This document shows, piece after piece, positions 3,492-40,595 of a stretch of DNA of 45,270 nucleotides. Position 1 is the stretch's first letter. The number at the start of each line of letters is the position of its first letter. Below the pieces are notes generated by a model. That model was not told where the DNA came from. It saw nothing but the letters and a program-made list of their open reading frames with translations, and did not search any database. The position numbers and the translations under genes were made by a program. The stretch lies in the sequence record OQ589852.1; one strand, given 5' to 3'. Source of the stretch: Escherichia phage Ioannina.

Positions 3492-4578
3492 CCAACGACT
3501 GGCGGATCGCATGATTCGCCGTCACATCTTCACCCAGCGCCTGAGCAATGAGCAGGCGCGTAAAGTGCTGGCAATGTGGCAAAAATTCCGTCCTACGTTA
3601 CTGGGTAAGCTGACCGAATTACTTGAGGGCAAGAAGTCAATGAGCAATAAGGCGCTTACCACTCTGCTAACCCAAATCGACAAAACGGTTAAGACCGAAC
3701 TGCGCGACGAGTTTAAAGTGCTGGCTGAAGGTCTGGCGGAGTTTGCCGATACCGAGGCTGAATATCTGACCGACACATTAACGGCAGCACTGCAACCTGC
3801 GCTTTCAGTCCCTGCCGTTGAGGTGGTTGGTGTAGTGACCGGTGCGCAGATTGCAGCGACGGCTATGAAAAATCCATTCCAGGGCAACACGCTTATGCAA
3901 TGGCCTGATTCTCTGTCAGAATGGACCAGAACGCAGATCAGCAATCAGGTGCGCGCCGGATTTATCCAGGGCAAACCTACTATGCAAATTATTGCGGACG
4001 TCAAGCGCGCGTTGGGCGGTCGTAGCGCGCAGGCCATTTCAAGCGTGGTCAAGTCCGCAGTCAACCACTATGCGGCGACCGCACGCGAATTAATGGTAAA
4101 AGCAAATGATGATATTCTCGACGGTCGCCAGTGGCTTTCTACACTGGATACTCACACCTCAACGCTCTGTCAGTTACGCGATCGCCTGTTTTATCCGGTT
4201 GATGTTACCCCCGAAACAAAAGGGAAACGGGACGGGAAAGTGGTGGCTGGATCACAGTATGGCGCTGGTCCTGGCAAGCTACATTATTGTTGCCGTTCTA
4301 CCGAGACGTGGAAAGTCAAGGGTATGGAAGATTGGCCCAGTGGTAAGCGTCCGGCACTGAAGGCCGAAGCGGGTAAACTGCTAAGTGAGCAGGTCAGTGC
4401 TAAGACGGACTTCTTCTCCTGGGTACAGCGCCAGCCGCGGCATATCCTTGAGGAATTATACGGAGTGCAGCGCGCGGACCAGATCCTGCGAGGCGTGAAA
4501 GTTCCGACCATGTTTAACGACGCGGGCGAGCTTATGACGATTCAACAACCAAAAAATAAGGGGTTATGGCGTGATTAA
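3469..4578 (+). CDS. minor head / head morphogenesis protein (Mu gpF / SPP1 gp7-like)
   Basis: 369 aa following and overlapping the portal gene; start codon uncertain (several in-frame Met). Confidence 0.55.
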   Translation: MTMPRKINQRLADRMIRRHIFTQRLSNEQARKVLAMWQKFRPTLLGKLTELLEGKKSMSNKALTTLLTQIDKTVKTELRDEFKVLAEGLAEFADTEAEYLTDTLTAALQPALSVPAVEVVGVVTGAQIAATAMKNPFQGNTLMQWPDSLSEWTRTQISNQVRAGFIQGKPTMQIIADVKRALGGRSAQAISSVVKSAVNHYAATARELMVKANDDILDGRQWLSTLDTHTSTLCQLRDRLFYPVDVTPETKGKRDGKVVAGSQYGAGPGKLHYCCRSTETWKVKGMEDWPSGKRPALKAEAGKLLSEQVSAKTDFFSWVQRQPRHILEELYGVQRADQILRGVKVPTMFNDAGELMTIQQPKNKGLWRD

Positions 4579-4879
4579 ATACGCAGCAGCCGGATTGATT
4601 CTCGGCCTTGTAATTGGGTTCTGGCAAGGTGACAACTATCGTGCTGGCGTGGTGGCGGAGGCGGCGCAGGAAGCGCAAGCCAAAGCCCAACGGCAGCAAA
4701 CTAAGGTAATCCATGAGTCGGTACAGAAAGAGCAGGCCCGCGAAGTGGAGTTCCGCACAGTTGAGAAAGAGGTGATTAAATATGTCACGCGTCCTGATCG
4801 CGATAATTGTAAGTTTGATGCTGACCGCGTGCGGATCAAGCAACGTGCCGTTGATGCCGCTAACGGAATCAGCAATTAA
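4571..4879 (+). CDS. Rz-like i-spanin
   Basis: N-terminal TM helix (AAAGLILGLVIGFW), Q/A/E-rich coiled coil; an out-of-frame lipoprotein ORF overlaps its 3' half, the classic Rz/Rz1 arrangement. Confidence 0.6.
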   Translation: MIKYAAAGLILGLVIGFWQGDNYRAGVVAEAAQEAQAKAQRQQTKVIHESVQKEQAREVEFRTVEKEVIKYVTRPDRDNCKFDADRVRIKQRAVDAANGISN

Positions 4880-5012
4880 GCCGCCGTGTAAGTTTGAGTC
4901 GCCATCGGAAGATCCGGACGAAGATTTAGCGATTGATGTGCGAAATATGAAATGCGGGGCGGAGTTAAGGGCACAAGTGCTGGATTTGCAGAAATTAATT
5001 AAGGGGCCGTAA
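4782..5012 (+). CDS. Rz1-like o-spanin lipoprotein
   Basis: Signal peptide with lipobox LTAC, Pro-rich mature part with Cys; begins inside Rz in another frame and runs past its stop. Confidence 0.65.
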   Translation: MSRVLIAIIVSLMLTACGSSNVPLMPLTESAIKPPCKFESPSEDPDEDLAIDVRNMKCGAELRAQVLDLQKLIKGP

Positions 5013-5025
5013 TGGCCCCTTTCTA
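5002..5025. terminator. bidirectional rho-independent terminator (AAGGGGCC-loop-GGCCCCTTT)
   Basis: GC-rich perfect stem flanked by A-run and T-run; lies between convergent Rz1 and the minus-strand gene. Confidence 0.7.
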
Positions 5026-5787
5026 TTAGCGCGGAATACCGCAGATTTCGTTTAGTGTCTTCACGTCAAGCGCTACTGCCGTTGACTTCTTCTCTTCCTG
5101 CGGGATGAACTGTTTCACTTCAGGCCATGCCTTAATAAGTTTGGTGTCTGTAGTGTACTTATTCAGAGTACCCATAACTGACAATTTAAACTCATCGTAT
5201 TTAGCACGTAAATCGCGGCGCGCCTTGTCGTTCTTATCCAGACGTTTGCAAAATTCATGCTCTGCCGGGTAATCTGCACGACCGCGAGGCTTGTAGATCG
5301 GCACTTGCTCACCTTCCGCGTTAATTTCCACCAGCGCCGTAAGTAGCGCAGTTTCAAACCCAGGTACGATTTCGCCAATGTCCGGGGCCATCGAGTTATT
5401 GTAGCGGTCTTCCCAGTAGCCTCGGTGACAGCGGCTGCTGTAGTTATCACCGCTCAATGACAGTGTGCGGATGTTACCACCCATGTTGACTTCGAACGTT
5501 GCATCGTACACAGCACCAATGCCGTGGGGCATGTCCTTGTTATGGCTGAAGGTTGCACGGCTGGCGTACACGCTTATGCTAAACATGCCGTTATTTGTGT
5601 CTTGATAGCTGCGCATCATTTTCTGCAACCCAACGAAGCTGGTAACACCTTTCGGCATCTGATCCAGAGTGATATCCAGCGCCAGGTCGCGCGATTCGGT
5701 CATTAACTTTTTGGCCTGCTTCGTGATTTCGTGGCCTGCCAGGATGTTAGCCAGGATTTGCTTTTTAATGTCTTTAGTCAGTCTCAT
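5026..5787 (-). CDS. hypothetical protein, early-promoter-driven minus-strand gene inside the structural module
   Basis: About 253 aa from MRLTKDIKK with GAGGAAACAACA RBS; own promoter upstream and own terminator downstream; no recognisable motif. Confidence 0.5.
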   Translation of the reverse strand: MRLTKDIKKQILANILAGHEITKQAKKLMTESRDLALDITLDQMPKGVTSFVGLQKMMRSYQDTNNGMFSISVYASRATFSHNKDMPHGIGAVYDATFEVNMGGNIRTLSLSGDNYSSRCHRGYWEDRYNNSMAPDIGEIVPGFETALLTALVEINAEGEQVPIYKPRGRADYPAEHEFCKRLDKNDKARRDLRAKYDEFKLSVMGTLNKYTTDTKLIKAWPEVKQFIPQEEKKSTAVALDVKTLNEICGIPR

Positions 5788-5810
5788 TGTTGTTTCCTCG
5801 TTTGTTGGTG

Positions 5811-5885
5811 TGCAACCAATATATTGCAACCAATTAGCCAATGCAAGCAAATTTTGTGATTATTTTTATCACTGATAATATTAAG
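5811..5885. promoter_or_regulatory. divergent promoter region with tandem TGCAACCAAT repeats
   Basis: Minus strand reads TTGCAT-N17-TATATT, overlapping two ATTGGTTGCA copies; plus strand has TTGTGA-N16-TAATAT upstream of the scaffold gene. Confidence 0.55.
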
Positions 5886-5937
5886 GGCGTGAAGTCGAGC
5901 GGGTGGCCCGCTCTGCCACAATCCCTGGGGGATGTTA

Positions 5938-6641
5938 TGAAACTGACTAAAGCAGAATATGACGCGTTGCCTGAAGGCATGAAAGCATTGTTTGTTGCCG
6001 ATGGTGACGGGTACAAGGCGACGTTTATGACCGCCGAAGAAGTACAGGCCGAGATCAAAGGTCTGAAGGATAACAACGCGAAGCTGGTAGGCGAGAAAAA
6101 GGCAGAAGCCGAACGCCGTGCCGAAGCGGAGCGACTCGCTAAAGAGAAAGAGGAAGCCGCAGCGCGCAAGAACGGCGACCTTGAAGCGATCGATAAGTCC
6201 TGGCAGGACAAGTTTACTAAATACGATGCGGATACGAAGGGCAAAATCGAAGCCTACCGCAAACAGATTCACGATCTTACCATCGGCAGCACTGCCAAAG
6301 ACCTGGCATCAAAGCTGTTCGGTAAGAACGCTGGCATTATGCAACGCCACGTCATGGACCGCCTTGCGCTGGAAGAAGGCGAAGACGGCAGTCTGAAAGT
6401 GCGCGTATTGCAGGACGGCAAACCATCCGCACTGACTATGGAAGAACTGGAGAAAGAGTTCCGTAGTAACGAAGATTTCGCGTCCGTCCTGGCGGGTACG
6501 CCTGCCGGTGGTGCGCCGAGCAAACCGACCCATGTAATCGACGATCCGAAATCTAAGATTCAGATGGGTCATAGCTTCGGCATCACTGACTTGACCAAAC
6601 AGGCCAGCGATATTATCGCCAAACTGGGCGACGACGAGTAA
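5938..6641 (+). CDS. scaffolding protein
   Basis: About 234 aa from MKLTKAEYDAL; charged coiled-coil (AEAERRAEAERLAKEKEEAAARK); directly upstream of major capsid gene. The track's longer ORF from 5841 is probably an over-extension. Confidence 0.65.
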
Positions 6642-6644
6642 GCA

Positions 6645-6680
6645 GGTTGCCCGCGAAAGCGGGCAATTTTGCGAGCGTGA
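6645..6680 (+). terminator. rho-independent terminator/attenuator
   Basis: TTGCCCGC-GAAA-GCGGGCAA hairpin followed by TTTT. Confidence 0.6.
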
Positions 6681-6738
6681 AAAATTAGGGTAACATTAAA
6701 AGCACTGGGCGATTGCTCTCTACTCAAAGGATAAACTT

Positions 6739-11770: not shown

Positions 11771-11832
11771 GGTTGGTTGCAAAATGACTGATACAATACA
11801 AACGGCAACTTGCATAAAAAGGGGACTGCATA

Positions 11833-20696: not shown

Positions 20697-20718
20697 AGGG
20701 GCCGTTTGGCCCCTTTCT
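20697..20718. terminator. bidirectional rho-independent terminator (AAGGGGCC-loop-GGCCCCTTT)
   Basis: Same stem family as 5002-5025 and 25167-25190; between convergent J and the minus-strand gene. Confidence 0.7.
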
Positions 20719-21692
20719 TAATACATATTAGGAAGGACAATCAGCGGTGTTGGTACGACAACATTGCGGTTAGGCATCTGGAATTGCTGCCGTGAATAGT
20801 TGCCAATGACGCGGTTTTTCGCTGCACCAACGACGCTACCCGCCATGCGTATCCCGTTCATGCGTACGTGGTTATAACCGCTATTGTTTTCAATAAGCGC
20901 GCCCGTGTATGAAAGCTGAATAAGGCTGTTACCGATATTCTGCCACCCTGCGCTAAGGTCAACCGTCCCGTTAAACACAAACGGCTTATTGACGGTGGAG
21001 AATGTAACCTGGCCTGCGTTGTTGGTCATCGTGATACCGGTTCCGGGGCTTGGCGGTGTGTTATTGAATATAACCAATTCCATGTCAACGGCAGCACCCA
21101 CATCATCAATCCCGCCGTAAGCCGCATTGCGGACGATAATACTGCCTCCATCGAAGCCAACCGACACGTTAGGGTCATCCCAACGGGCGAACGGAACACC
21201 TCCTACCGGCAGCGGCATACTTCCGTTCACATGGACGCGCTGCGCGTAGCGACAGGTCATCAGCCGAGCGACGTTTGATATGGCGGTAAAGTCCGTCGAG
21301 TTAGCCACCAGAAGCCCAGCATTACGCGACCCCACCGGCAGCACTTCCATAATCGTTCCCGCCCAGGTTGGAAGCCCGCTATAAGCGCCCAGCGCGTCAG
21401 CACCGTGCAGCGTAATTCCGCCATCACCATTTCGAGATATTGACGTTACAAACATCGGATCGGGTATTACCAGTGTTTGGTCGAACACTTCCACCACTTC
21501 AACGGGATTAGTTAGCACGACTATAAGCTGCGATCCAGGCGTTAGCGGAGTATTGACTGTTAGCGTCTTGTCAGATTGGCAGCGCTGATTAAAATTGGTA
21601 CAAAAAGACGGAGCACGAAGCCCCGCCGTAATTTCCATTCTTGGACGTCCATCGTTGTATTCGATAAGGATACCTGCACCCATAATTACCAC
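20718..21692 (-). CDS. hypothetical beta-rich protein (possible receptor-binding or secreted partner of the lipoprotein)
   Basis: 324 aa, Gly/Asn/Thr/Val-rich; second gene of a minus-strand cassette antisense to the tail genes; no motif recognised. Confidence 0.5.
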   Translation of the reverse strand: MVIMGAGILIEYNDGRPRMEITAGLRAPSFCTNFNQRCQSDKTLTVNTPLTPGSQLIVVLTNPVEVVEVFDQTLVIPDPMFVTSISRNGDGGITLHGADALGAYSGLPTWAGTIMEVLPVGSRNAGLLVANSTDFTAISNVARLMTCRYAQRVHVNGSMPLPVGGVPFARWDDPNVSVGFDGGSIIVRNAAYGGIDDVGAAVDMELVIFNNTPPSPGTGITMTNNAGQVTFSTVNKPFVFNGTVDLSAGWQNIGNSLIQLSYTGALIENNSGYNHVRMNGIRMAGSVVGAAKNRVIGNYSRQQFQMPNRNVVVPTPLIVLPNMY

Positions 21693-21910
21693 TCCCGTGA
21701 TTTAACTGATACCGTACCAGAGAAGTTACCGTCTGAATCTGCCGCCAAACCGGTGAATCGCATGTCAATGCCTCCGGCAGCGACCTTTTGCCCGTCAACA
21801 TAACGCAACATGCAGCTTCCCGCAACGTAGGTAACGCAATCGCCATTATGACGCTCAACAGCACAACCACACACCATAGCAACGACTAAAATACTTAATA
21901 AAGTTTTCAT
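21686..21910 (-). CDS. small lipoprotein, candidate Cor/Llp-like superinfection-exclusion protein
   Basis: About 74 aa from MKTLLSILVVAMVCGC (signal peptide with Cys); AAGGAG RBS; early-type promoter upstream; sits beside host-range genes as cor does in lambdoid phages and llp in T5. Confidence 0.45.
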   Translation of the reverse strand: MKTLLSILVVAMVCGCAVERHNGDCVTYVAGSCMLRYVDGQKVAAGGIDMRFTGLAADSDGNFSGTVSVKSREW

Positions 21911-21935: not shown

Positions 21936-21975
21936 CTTAAATATAGTGCAACCAATACGTGATTGCAACCAATTT
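21936..21975 (-). promoter_or_regulatory. early-type promoter (TTGCAA-N17-TATATT) with tandem ATTGGTTGCA repeats
   Basis: Read on the minus strand: ATTGGTTGCAATCACGTATTGGTTGCACTATATT; drives the lipoprotein cassette. Confidence 0.55.
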
Positions 21976-27954: not shown

Positions 27955-27997
27955 GTTGTCTCCAGGTATTAAAAAGGGCGTTCCCTTCAGAACACCC

Positions 27998-28032
27998 CCA
28001 ATATAATGCAACCAATCTCGCAATGCAACCAA
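27998..28032 (-). promoter_or_regulatory. early-type promoter (TTGCAT-N17-TATATT) with tandem ATTGGTTGCA repeats
   Basis: Minus strand: ATTGGTTGCATTGCGAGATTGGTTGCATTATATT. Confidence 0.55.
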
Positions 28033-37477: not shown

Positions 37478-37807
37478 ATGAATATCAACGAAGCAATTGA
37501 AGTGTTATCTAATGCAATCCGCGGCGAGACGGGTAAATCCTGGTATTACACGAATGCGGTGGGTACTCTGCTATTTGAGGTGTCCCGATTATCGCGTGTC
37601 GAGAAAGAGCTTACCGCCAAACTTGAATTGCTGAACGGTACGGCGGCGAGCAAGCTGCAAAAGCATAACGAAGAAATGGAAGAATACAAAAAGCAGGTTA
37701 TCAGACTGCGTGAAGAAGGTAAGTCCTGGGCGATGATTGCCGAGTTAACGGGTATTAATCAGAGCACCGTTCGTTCTTGGGTCCGCAATACTAAAACTGC
37801 TAAGTAA
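37478..37807 (+). CDS. HTH DNA-binding regulator
   Basis: 109 aa; C-terminal helix-turn-helix (SWAMIAELTGINQSTVRSWV); first gene of the rightward operon beside the divergent promoters. Confidence 0.6.
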   Translation: MNINEAIEVLSNAIRGETGKSWYYTNAVGTLLFEVSRLSRVEKELTAKLELLNGTAASKLQKHNEEMEEYKKQVIRLREEGKSWAMIAELTGINQSTVRSWVRNTKTAK

Positions 37808-37819
37808 GGAATTGAGACA

Positions 37820-40084
37820 ATGAGAAATATAGAATTTGCGATCACACCCCCCGCTAAGAAAGGCGAATCTGCGGTAGCTCATAACCAGTCCATGACTACC
37901 GCCGAGTTTTTCGAATTTATCCAGGATGCACCGGTAGTGTCGTCAGTTTGCATTAACGGTACTGAAGATAAAAAAGAATATGCGCGACGTAAGCGTAAAG
38001 GCGACGGCATTGTGGCTACAACCGCCGATGGCACGCGTAAAAAGACTGGCGTGGTTAGCCGCTCGATCCTGTTCTTCGACCTGGACCGTGCTGACAACCG
38101 CACACTTACCCGCTGCCGCAGGGCTTTCCGCAAGTCCGGCCTGGAATATGTCTACCACACCACCACCGGCGACCGCCACCCGTTGAAAGACGGCAAGCGC
38201 TGTGTGCGTTTCCTGGTGCTGACAAACAAGCCAGTTCCGGCGGAAGACTTGGGTCGCGCGCAGGCTGCACTGCTTGAGCAACTGGGTCTTACCGACGCGG
38301 GCTTTGATGACTGCTCGAAAGACACAAACCGCCTTATGTACCTGCCCCACCAGCAGGCTAAGGTCGAGTGTCATGAGGGTGAACGCGCTAACGTGCGTCG
38401 TCTGCTTCGCCTGGCTGACAAGATGGGTATTGAGCAGGAAACGTTTCGCCGTGAACTGGTGCAGGGCGACGACGAGCAGATGAACGGCATCCTCGACTGG
38501 TGTTTCCAGGCTGGTTTTGAGCCGTTACCATCCGGGCGCGGTTATGAAGTACCGTGCCCAAACGAACATCTGCACTCTGGTGAAGGGTCTACCGCTATCA
38601 TGCTTAAGGATGGCGAGATTCGTTTCAAATGTATGCACACCGGCAACGGATGCTGTTCTGAACTGAACAAACACCAACACCTGGCGCTGCGAATGATTGG
38701 TATCCCGGATATTTATAACGTGGAACCTCACAACATGTCGCGCAAACAGATCTCGGCAATCCTGCCCGGACTGGACGATGAAGAAGTGGACGCGCAGTAT
38801 GAGCACATGGTCGATCTGGTTGGCGAAGGTGAGGATTATGCGTCCTGTACTGACGCAGACCTGGAAGACGAACCAACGGCACTGTTCTCTAAACACGACC
38901 CGATCATCGAAGGTCTGATTAACTTCAAATCGACCTGGTACGCAGCGGGTGAGTCGAACATTGGTAAGTCCTTCTTCGTCCTGGGTCAGATGGCTGCCGT
39001 TGCCGCTGGCATCCCGTTCGGCGGCGCTAAGGTCGTCCAGTCCCATTGCTTCTACTTCGATGCGGAAGGTGGCGAGGCGTCCCACCAGCGTAAAGAAGCG
39101 TTGCAGATTAAATATGAGCACGACCTGGACAAGCTGCACATTATCGACCTTCAGGCACGCGGCTGGGATATTACGAGCAAATCCGGCCTGCGTGAAGTCA
39201 TCAGCTTTATCAACCGCACAGCGGATGGGGAACCGGTCGGCCTGGTGGCGTTCGACTCCCTTAACCAGACCGTGGCCCTGCGCTCGGCAGATGCCAAACC
39301 GTTCGACGAGAACAACGCAAGCGATATGGGTGAGATTGTCAAAGCGCTGAAGTCCATTGCGGAAAACACAGGCGGCAGTGCGGGCGTCATCCACCACCCG
39401 GCGAAGGGTGCAAACGGCAGCCGATCCCCGCGTGGGTCCGGTGCGCTACATGGCGCGGTGGATTCTGCATTCTTCCTGGAACAGCCAGACGAGAATCAGC
39501 CAGGCCAGCTTAACCTCTATCATGAGAAAGCCCGTAACGGCGTGAAACAGGGTCCGCGCGGCTTCGTGCTACTGAAGTGCAAAGTGTCCATTAACGAGCG
39601 CAAGTCCGACACGTTCGAAGCGCACCAGTCCACTAACCCTGGTCCAGACTTCGGCGATGTGGTTGCCGGTTGGGACGTCAAGCCAATCCAGGCCACCCCG
39701 CGTGATGAGACTCTGTACCTTGTACCGGTAGCTCTGGTCCCGTTCGCTATCGAACAGGCGAAGGCCGCGGGCAAGCAGGCTGTTAAGGAAGAAAACCCCG
39801 CCGGTCCGCGCAATGAAAAAGAGAAAGTGCTTTACGCAGCGCTCGAAGCGTTGATGGAAGAGAATCCGGGACACCATGGCTTCAGCAAATCGGCAATCGT
39901 CCGCAAAGCCGGACTGGCGAAAGGTGGCACATCGACGAAGCCAATAGACGATATGCGTGAGCGCGGAATAATCGGCTTTTACAAAGACCCGGACACCGGG
40001 GCCATTTACGGGTCGTCGAATCTGGTTATCAATTCACAAATACCTATGCAATTGACGGCGACGGATGATGATTTGAAAGATTAA
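37820..40084 (+). CDS. DNA primase / replicative helicase (bifunctional)
   Basis: 754 aa; N-terminal primase-like domain (FFDLDRADN), Cys/His cluster (CPNEHLHSGEG…CMHTGNGCC), C-terminal RecA/DnaB-like ATPase with Walker A GESNIGKS. Confidence 0.75.
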   Translation: MRNIEFAITPPAKKGESAVAHNQSMTTAEFFEFIQDAPVVSSVCINGTEDKKEYARRKRKGDGIVATTADGTRKKTGVVSRSILFFDLDRADNRTLTRCRRAFRKSGLEYVYHTTTGDRHPLKDGKRCVRFLVLTNKPVPAEDLGRAQAALLEQLGLTDAGFDDCSKDTNRLMYLPHQQAKVECHEGERANVRRLLRLADKMGIEQETFRRELVQGDDEQMNGILDWCFQAGFEPLPSGRGYEVPCPNEHLHSGEGSTAIMLKDGEIRFKCMHTGNGCCSELNKHQHLALRMIGIPDIYNVEPHNMSRKQISAILPGLDDEEVDAQYEHMVDLVGEGEDYASCTDADLEDEPTALFSKHDPIIEGLINFKSTWYAAGESNIGKSFFVLGQMAAVAAGIPFGGAKVVQSHCFYFDAEGGEASHQRKEALQIKYEHDLDKLHIIDLQARGWDITSKSGLREVISFINRTADGEPVGLVAFDSLNQTVALRSADAKPFDENNASDMGEIVKALKSIAENTGGSAGVIHHPAKGANGSRSPRGSGALHGAVDSAFFLEQPDENQPGQLNLYHEKARNGVKQGPRGFVLLKCKVSINERKSDTFEAHQSTNPGPDFGDVVAGWDVKPIQATPRDETLYLVPVALVPFAIEQAKAAGKQAVKEENPAGPRNEKEKVLYAALEALMEENPGHHGFSKSAIVRKAGLAKGGTSTKPIDDMRERGIIGFYKDPDTGAIYGSSNLVINSQIPMQLTATDDDLKD

Positions 40085-40087
40085 ATT

Positions 40088-40175
40088 TTGCGCGCATTGG
40101 TTGCCAATATGGTTAATTTGTGCGCGCATTGGTTGCCGGATTGAGCATTAAATTCATATCGTATTGGTTGCCGTG
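40088..40175. repeat. three direct repeats of (GCGCGC)ATTGGTTGCC spaced about 34 bp
   Basis: Immediately downstream of the primase-helicase stop. Confidence 0.7.
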
Positions 40176-40204: not shown

Positions 40205-40380
40205 AATACGTGCATAAAACAAACGGGACAAAAACGGGACAAACGGCAAGCGGGACAAAGCGGGACGTCCCGTCGTCCCCGTCAGTCGTGGCGCGGGTTT
40301 GAGGCAAACGGGACAAGCGGGACAGACCACAGTCTTTCAGACTAGACGGGGGGTATTGTCCCCCCTCCGTCTGAGACTGC
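40205..40380. repeat. GGGACA iteron-like array plus conserved hairpin, copy 2
   Basis: Collinear with 11591-11770 (TGCATAAAAC, ACGGGACAAAAACGGGACAA, GCGGGACA-AGCGGGACGTCCCG, CGCGGGTTT, hairpin CAGTCTTTCAGACTAGACGGGGGG…CCCCCCTCCGTCTGAGACTG). Confidence 0.8.
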
Positions 40381-40529
40381 ATAAAATCTCTGGTTGCATA
40401 ATCAACGGCAGCATAGTGAAAAATGCGGCGGGGGTAGATCTCGGCAACCAATGCGAGTTGAAGAGTGGAGAGTGAAAAATGCAGTTTGCAATTGCAACTC
40501 ATAGCGATCAGCATTTTCATGCGCGTGAT

Positions 40530-40575
40530 TAATATTGGTTGCATCCAGCCTGGCACCTTGCTATATTGGTTGCAC
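40530..40575 (+). promoter_or_regulatory. early-type promoter (TTGCAT-N17-TATATT) with ATTGGTTGCA repeats
   Basis: Plus strand: ATTGGTTGCATCCAGCCTGGCACCTTGCTATATTGGTTGCAC, about 30 nt upstream of the ATG at 40596. Confidence 0.55.
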
Positions 40576-40595
40576 ACCAACATGAGGACTGAACG

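Follow-up and report, generated by a model that had tools for sequence, protein, structure and literature searches.

The antisense gene between the spanin and scaffold genes of Escherichia phage Ioannina is a divergent Dhillonvirus nmad5

Escherichia phage Ioannina (sequence record OQ589852.1) carries, on the minus strand of its head gene cluster, a 253-residue gene at positions 5026-5787 that had been flagged as unknown. Analysis of the whole 45,270-nucleotide (nt) stretch, hereafter called the window, now gives this gene a name. With high confidence it is the Dhillonvirus nmad5, coding for a non-structural protein of the Pfam family Nmad5, and it represents a divergent allele class within a known family; genetic work on orthologues from this genus has already been published. 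Two misreadings are thereby corrected, namely that the gene is a recent moron insertion and that its product is a DNA-modification enzyme. For the fuller reading, in which this identity is joined to a role as an early non-enzymatic adaptor transcribed as a one-gene antisense unit, we consider the chances to be about evenly balanced.

Results

Family identity and protein architecture

The protein matches the Pfam Nmad5 profile (PF18757) with an E value of 4.3e-43 and 148.2 bits, compared with a gathering cut-off of 27, and its residues 1-252 align with positions 1-206 of the 206 in the profile. It also matches phrog_1965 (E 4e-50). The original prediction had seen no assignable motif in this protein and had proposed a remote-homology search and structure prediction; the former makes it a full-length member of the Nmad5/phrog_1965 family, and the latter gave no fold match in the PDB. 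All three elements of the family signature are present: an N-terminal MRLT..I...I.N helix, the T..KL..AWPE motif, and the terminal LNxx[CI]G[LI]P peptide, which usually lies within a few residues of the C-terminus and was seen in 123 family members. An exhaustive HMMER search gathered 142 cluster representatives, most of them about 200 residues long, with the best alignment in the C-terminal 80 residues; in the Dhillonvirus form the central region is enlarged, at about residues 46-175. Residues L217, W221, P222, N246 and G104 are invariant, the first four of them in two alignments, with C249 and E223 nearly so. The W221-P222-E223 motif is encoded at 5119-5127 (minus strand), and the C-terminal peptide (residues 244-253, TLNEICGIPR) at 5029..5058 (minus strand).

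The AlphaFold2 model is confident, with a predicted local distance difference test (pLDDT) score of 85.9 and a predicted template modelling (pTM) score of 0.81. It consists of N-terminal helices, a four-stranded β-meander, a long helix at residues 178-208 and short helices around the WPE motif, while the C-terminal motif has a pLDDT below 50 and is predicted to be disordered or of low confidence. A Foldseek comparison of the model with the PDB gave nothing below an E value of 0.7, sequence and profile searches of the PDB came back empty, and a structure search of BFVD returned other phage Nmad5 proteins only. Neither NCBIfam (no match) nor the PADLOC-DB defence hidden Markov models (0 families at E values up to 1) added an assignment. 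A β-clamp-binding motif and a motif like the tail of SSB, the protein that binds single-stranded DNA, were also considered for the C-terminal peptide, and were rejected since the peptide did not fit these consensus sequences.

The open reading frame (ORF) at 5026-5787 on the minus strand codes for 253 residues plus a stop codon, beginning with MRLTKDIKK, and a Shine-Dalgarno sequence read directly from the letters (GAGGAA, 5794-5799, minus strand) is spaced 6 nt from the ATG. Mechanically, the frame can be extended to a TTG at 5850 to give 274 residues; the 253-residue reading is nevertheless the right one, because all homologues begin at MRLT. The coordinates and length first proposed for this antisense ORF were therefore correct, with a good ribosome-binding site and homologue starts in agreement, and so was its placement within the head gene cluster. 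From one side the overlapping spanin genes (4571-5012) converge on it, and the scaffold gene (5937-6641), followed by that of the major capsid protein, diverges from it on the other. The GC fraction of nmad5 is 0.496, compared with 0.536 for the genome and 0.514 for the adjacent spanin genes.

Distribution, decay and divergence within the genus

The source genome is a Dhillonvirus, being 99.9% identical at the nucleotide level to Dhillonvirus LM40P1 over positions 4500-6700, and about 82% identical over the same region to more than 100 other Escherichia coli and Shigella Dhillonviruses. At the DNA level, nmad5 was matched in 149 phage records, almost all of them carrying the name of an Escherichia, Shigella or Dhillonvirus phage, and at least 80% of the gene was covered in 134 of them. 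All Dhillonvirus records whose annotations were read have it in the slot between the spanin and scaffold genes, and that slot is likewise occupied in a relative of 45 kb with an Nmad5 only 38% identical. Where the gene is missing, it has decayed in place by internal deletion or truncation. In Teewinot an internal deletion fuses about 35 N-terminal codons to the last few, in JL1 (JX865427.2) another leaves only about 40 N-terminal codons, and in SM_S24 a 184-residue truncated product has lost the conserved C-terminal third.

The original prediction had described the gene as inserted, in the manner of a moron, and had suggested a comparison of related phages for its presence or absence. This comparison does not bear out a sporadic addition, since presence is nearly genus-wide and absences are decayed copies. 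Thus, nmad5 is an old gene present across nearly the whole genus, its slot is an old and somewhat plastic antisense island, and the gene is best seen as a member of the replication or early module stranded in the late region rather than as a recent insertion. Two islands were seen to hold further genes. That of the 38%-identical relative (locus L013, 6681-8115) contains three, namely a 105-residue ORF (phrog_2510), Nmad5 and a Phage_VG64 or recombination directionality factor-like protein (phrog_478), and that of SM_A8 (locus L008, 4746-5060) has an additional 104-residue ORF (phrog_24635) upstream of nmad5.

Divergence within the island is concentrated on the gene itself. Nmad5 is 62% identical to its orthologue in the relative Bas84, whereas the 13 other head- and tail-module proteins compared are 72-93% identical (scaffold, 91%), and nucleotide identity to Bas84 falls to 60-68% only within the nmad5 gene body. 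Discrete allele classes are evident, with 3 representatives of the window (LM40P1) type and 35 of a main clade that averages 88% identity among its own members. The two classes are 64% identical overall, but 100% over the last 20 residues and 90% over the first 10. The architecture is therefore one of conserved ends and a variable middle.

A predicted promoter of the non-structural type and a shared terminator

The decamer ATTGGTTGCA occurs 21 times in the whole window at no more than one mismatch, compared with 3.7 expected. Upstream of nmad5 it is present as exact copies at 5811-5820 and 5825-5834 and as a degenerate third at 5842-5851, which make up three direct copies on the minus strand at 5811..5851. 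When seen in context, the ATTGGTTGCA copies turn out to belong to a single promoter design, (ATTGG)TTGC[AG]N, a 17-nt spacer and TATANT. The TTGC[AG]N-N17-TATANT geometry is found at 5 sites in the window (0.13 expected), each immediately upstream of a non-structural gene that is correctly oriented. A single site is on the plus strand (40534-40567) and precedes small genes lying rightward of the helicase-primase gene. The others are on the minus strand, at 30992-30959 before a 67-residue ORF and then the SNF2 helicase gene, at 28033-28000 before a 154-residue ORF and the genes for Dam and a HAD phosphatase-like protein, at 21973-21940 before lipoprotein and DUF6453 genes in a second antisense island within the tail cluster, and at 5851-5818 before nmad5.

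The nmad5 site reads TTTGC-TTGCAT (−35, 5846-5841), N17, TATATT (−10, 5823-5818) and is predicted to be of sigma-70 type. Its −10 and initial transcribed region form the 20-mer TATATTGGTTGCACACCAAC (5804..5823, minus strand), which is identical to the promoter sequence at 40562-40581 on the plus strand, with 0 such matches expected by chance. The promoter is retained in Bas84, there with an 18-nt spacer, and in Teewinot. A generic sigma-70 scan called no promoter upstream of nmad5, because the −35 element TTGCAT scores only 3/6; the idea that nmad5 lacks a promoter was dropped when a search with the phage-specific pattern recovered the site. From the genes that share this promoter family we infer that the nmad5 promoter is early-type, in line with the original prediction, which is supported by association inasmuch as the non-structural operons use the same family and an exact 20-mer is held in common.

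Downstream of the gene, a GC-rich hairpin at 5001..5021, with an 8-bp stem (AAGGGGCC-5 nt-GGCCCCTT) and folding energies of −15.7 kcal/mol on one strand and −15.9 kcal/mol on the other, is the likely shared terminator of the convergent o-spanin and nmad5 genes. Judging from the sequence, this hairpin, which the spanin genes share, is most likely where nmad5 transcription ends. Its loop contains the o-spanin stop codon (5010-5012), the two convergent genes being packed against one terminator. The terminator was described earlier as bidirectional. The strong hairpin is indeed there; a terminator scan called it on the minus strand only, yet U-containing tails flank it on both sides and, if a shorter GGGGCC stem is taken, the plus strand then reads TTTCTATT, and therefore termination in both directions is plausible. 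The proposal of an independently expressed unit, antisense and with its own predicted promoter of the non-structural-operon type and a hairpin terminator, is thus upheld.

Between nmad5 and the scaffold gene, the divergent intergenic region (5788..5936) holds the nmad5 promoter, an AT-rich palindrome and a GC-rich hairpin, and has 88% nucleotide identity to Bas84. The palindrome (5860-5884), upstream of the scaffold gene, contains TTATCACTGATAA at 5866-5878, and the hairpin (5884-5926, −18.8 kcal/mol) stands ahead of the scaffold start; both may be late-promoter or regulatory elements of the scaffold-to-tail operon.

Genetic link to the Tmn defence

Orthologues of this gene have been met in the mutants of two Dhillonviruses, PhiSMA8 and PhiSMS22, that escape the Tmn defence (Yamashita et al. 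2025, Commun Biol, PMC11846954). The two escapers carry an equivalent nmad5 substitution, K216E in PhiSMA8 and K296E in the longer annotation of PhiSMS22; reverting it restored Tmn sensitivity, and engineering it conferred resistance (PMC11846954). In the same study, a phage deleted for nmad5 was viable and still sensitive to Tmn, and attempts to clone the gene were unsuccessful, apparently owing to toxicity (PMC11846954). In the window protein K216 (codon 5140..5142, minus strand) is conserved, directly before the invariant L217 and near the WPE motif. The published anti-Tmn gene was considered as a possible resident of the nmad5 island and was rejected, since it is ORF35 and lies elsewhere in the genome. 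In the portions of the Stokar-Avihail preprint and of the RAZR paper that were accessible, both dealing with other Dhillonvirus escape mutants, nmad5 was not involved.

With a viable deletion and three natural loss alleles, nmad5 is an accessory gene. The original prediction had called it so, and had suggested host-takeover, exclusion or anti-defence functions. Dispensability and the genetic link to Tmn are in keeping with this; a prophage-expressed exclusion gene is unlikely, because the family sits in a repressor-controlled early operon in temperate relatives, and a lytic-cycle function is therefore favoured.

Genomic contexts of the Nmad5 family

The family is broad, with 338 phage records found by tblastn and 247 loci confirmed in one scan of IMG/VR. 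Elsewhere, an Nmad5 gene overlaps the start of a Pol A gene, lies between a DEAD helicase and VRR-NUC, adjoins HNH and DUF2800, or stands between ThyX and AAA_24. In the lambdoid phage mEp235 it is found in the early-left operon, between N/Nun and cIII. A hypermodification cassette was the setting only in Yuavirus/M6-like phages among the contexts examined. A neighbour census in IMG/VR, covering 144 ORFs taken from 24 non-redundant Nmad5 clusters, was dominated by CI-like repressors (Peptidase_S24, HTH_3), PD-(D/E)XK nucleases (DUF2800, DUF3799), the Enc34 SSB, AAA_24, Pol A, DnaG, AAA_25 and RecT. The window itself encodes Dam, an SNF2 helicase, VRR-NUC, a DUF2800 / PD-(D/E)XK nuclease and an Enc34-type SSB, and its Pol A and primase-helicase were identified through the annotation of Bas84.

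Other features of the window

The second antisense island, in the tail cluster, consists of the ATTGGTTGCA-type promoter at 21940-21973 (minus strand) and the genes at 21686-21910 and 20718-21692, both on the minus strand. The first codes for a small protein matching Pfam Phage_lipoprotein PF24052 (MKTLLSILVVAMVCGC...), and the second for a 324-residue DUF6453 protein that is annotated in Bas84 as a membrane protein or moron. Superinfection exclusion or receptor blocking is a candidate function of this island.

Past the helicase-primase gene, the intergenic region (40081-40172, 40221-40320 and 40415-40482) is rich in direct repeats, among them three 25-nt units ending in ATTGGTTGCC with spacings of 32 and 35 nt, four copies of AAACGGGACAA and two of AGTGAAAAATGC, and it may represent a replication origin or a regulatory hub. 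Directly after the promoter at 28033-28000, the leader at 27960-28000 (minus strand) contains GGGGGTGTTCTGAAGGGAACGCCCTTTTT, a hairpin followed by a T-run that is kept in Bas84 and may function as an attenuator; it was not called by the terminator scan of the window. A single GTTGGTTGCA copy at 11772-11781 (plus strand), just upstream of the tape-measure gene (11833), has no recognisable −10 element at the usual spacing. Finally, the gene at 37478-37807 (plus strand) codes for a 109-residue protein with a sigma-70 region-4 or homeodomain-like helix-turn-helix (Pfam Sigma70_r4_2 and HTH_23), named a transposase in relatives; as a candidate regulator it might recognise the −35-like ATTGGTTGCA motif, which is pure speculation.

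Discussion

A possible mode of action

How Nmad5 might work can be outlined, with low confidence. It would be a non-enzymatic adaptor that acts early in infection, a member of the replication, recombination and early gene set, and in Dhillonvirus the gene would have been displaced into the head cluster with its non-structural-operon type of promoter kept. Docking could be carried out by the N-terminal helices, the long C-terminal helix, the KL..AWPE helix and the invariant, flexible LNxxCG(I/L)P peptide, on a partner that is conserved throughout the Proteobacteria or their phages, either a replication or recombination component or a host protein. Docking onto so conserved a partner would explain the toxicity encountered in cloning. 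The fast-diverging, β-rich central domain would set allele specificity. The K216E charge reversal, on the border of the conserved WPE helix, would alter which target Nmad5 binds or masks, and if the K216E protein masks or neutralises the Tmn trigger, the substitution is a gain of function, which would account for escape by the point mutant and none by the deletion.

A stronger version of this adaptor reading is that the family is misnamed altogether: Nmad5 would be a widespread early adaptor of novel fold, its C-terminal peptide docking on the replisome or recombination machinery or on a defence sensor, its central domain shaped by an arms race, and single substitutions beside the WPE helix retargeting it so that it neutralises or masks what triggers Tmn, a KAP-NTPase defence. 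We regard this version as possible but doubtful.

Alternative explanations

Given the name of the family, nucleotide modification associated domain 5, a part in DNA base modification, with Tmn responding to modified DNA, has to be weighed; we hold it to be improbable. The Nmad domains were reportedly defined by Iyer et al. in 2013, and their name is said to come from association with modification genes. The window does have a Dam methyltransferase gene, about 21 kb from nmad5, but a hydroxymethylase, an aGPT-Pplase, a 5-hydroxymethyldeoxyuridine (5-hmdU) kinase and a glycosyltransferase were not found in the window or in the Bas84 annotation, the family is also at home in lambdoid and Stx phages, and 0 modification families rank in the top 25 of the neighbour census. 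An enzyme-like fold or catalytic signature was not found, and the invariant residues (L, W, P, N and G) look structural. Sensing by Tmn of an Nmad5-dependent modification is also hard to reconcile with the genetics, because deletion of nmad5 leaves Tmn sensitivity unchanged and gives no escape. The published label of DNA modification enzyme is hence unsupported, there being no recognisable catalytic fold, no invariant residue of catalytic type and no hypermodification cassette in the genome. Membership of the family by homology stands all the same, since a modification context is a matter of surroundings and not a sequence criterion. The location within the head gene cluster, together with a scaffold mutation also carried by one Tmn escape phage (PMC11846954, Table 1), could instead suggest a head-assembly or virion component. 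This is hardly credible in view of the opposite strand, a promoter of the kind that the non-structural operons use, the viability of the deletion and of the natural truncations, and the family's residence in replication or immunity regions of other phages. It is also contradicted by mass spectrometry of Dhillonvirus EE09, in which 24 phage proteins were detected in cell-free lysate, including 16 of the 17 annotated structural proteins and the neighbours of the Nmad5 orthologue EE09_32, but not EE09_32 itself, which was likewise absent from the four found in infected cultures (PMC10673088). With the orthologue undetected and the deletion viable, the protein does not present itself as a conserved virion component, in line with the original prediction of an accessory gene.

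Nmad5 might instead be an inhibitor dedicated to anti-defence or host takeover, directed at an immune or housekeeping protein of the host, evolved in an arms race and retargeted to Tmn by one substitution. This seems to us rather unlikely, and it overlaps the adaptor reading, the main difference being the kind of partner. The discrete allele classes and the fastest divergence among the head-module genes would suit such an inhibitor, as would dispensability in the laboratory and the tendency of the slot in relatives to acquire further small genes of no assigned function. So would the N-cIII interval of the lambdoid early-left operon, which houses accessory genes such as ral and sieB. The escape mutation is also neomorphic and cloning is toxic, but the wild-type protein gives no protection against Tmn (PMC11846954). 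Similarity to characterised anti-defence proteins was not found, and the very wide distribution, with termini strongly conserved across distant hosts, is unusual for an inhibitor of narrow specificity; furthermore, the gene is often held tightly within replication modules, in one case overlapping the Pol A start.

Several points weigh against the adaptor reading. Its partner is hypothetical, and early timing is read solely from promoter similarity. The toxicity and Tmn data come from orthologues 62-64% identical to the window protein, that is, from alleles other than its own. The presence of Nmad5 within a thymidine-hypermodification cassette in Yuavirus/M6-like phages, and of ThyX or thymidylate-synthase neighbours at two other loci, speaks for the modification alternative, and a role linked to nucleotide metabolism is possible. 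A novel fold may also be compatible with catalysis, and C249 and E223 are nearly invariant.

Significance

Nmad5 is common in phages and prophages, and both the evidence that its name misleads and the biochemistry of so widespread a family are points worth pursuing. Dhillonviruses serve as chassis for phage therapy, and a single nmad5 substitution is enough to evade Tmn; knowing the partner of Nmad5 would explain how Tmn senses infection and enable rational engineering. The experimental handles now at hand are the conserved core and C-terminal peptide, the hypervariable middle, the replication and early-operon context and the lack of an enzyme fold.

Comparison with known systems

When set against the Pfam family PF18757, the window protein has the MRLT helix, the WPE motif and the C-terminal LNxxCGxP in common with it; the differences are in length, the model having 206 positions and the Dhillonvirus protein 253 residues, and in surroundings, the modification-gene context being absent here. 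Nmad5 of SM_A8 (PhiSMA8) occupies the same slot in the same orientation and is 62% identical over the full length, with K216, L217, WPE and the C-terminal peptide kept, whereas the window carries a distinct LM40P1-type allele, about 64% identical to the main clade, when compared with the PhiSMA8 and PhiSMS22 genes. The Yuavirus/M6-like Pseudomonas phages have a member of the same family that is 35-42% identical over the C-terminal 80 residues, but theirs stands amid hydroxymethylase, aGPT-Pplase, kinase, radical-SAM and pyridoxal phosphate (PLP) enzyme genes, while that of the window stands alone in the head cluster, without such a cassette.

With classical morons, finally, nmad5 shares an autonomous design, with a predicted promoter and terminator, an antisense position in a late operon and a non-essential nature. 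Classical morons, however, are sporadic and often expressed from prophages, whereas nmad5 is nearly genus-wide in Dhillonvirus, which is regarded as a virulent genus, and deviates only slightly in composition; in temperate relatives, moreover, the Nmad5 family resides in a repressed early operon.

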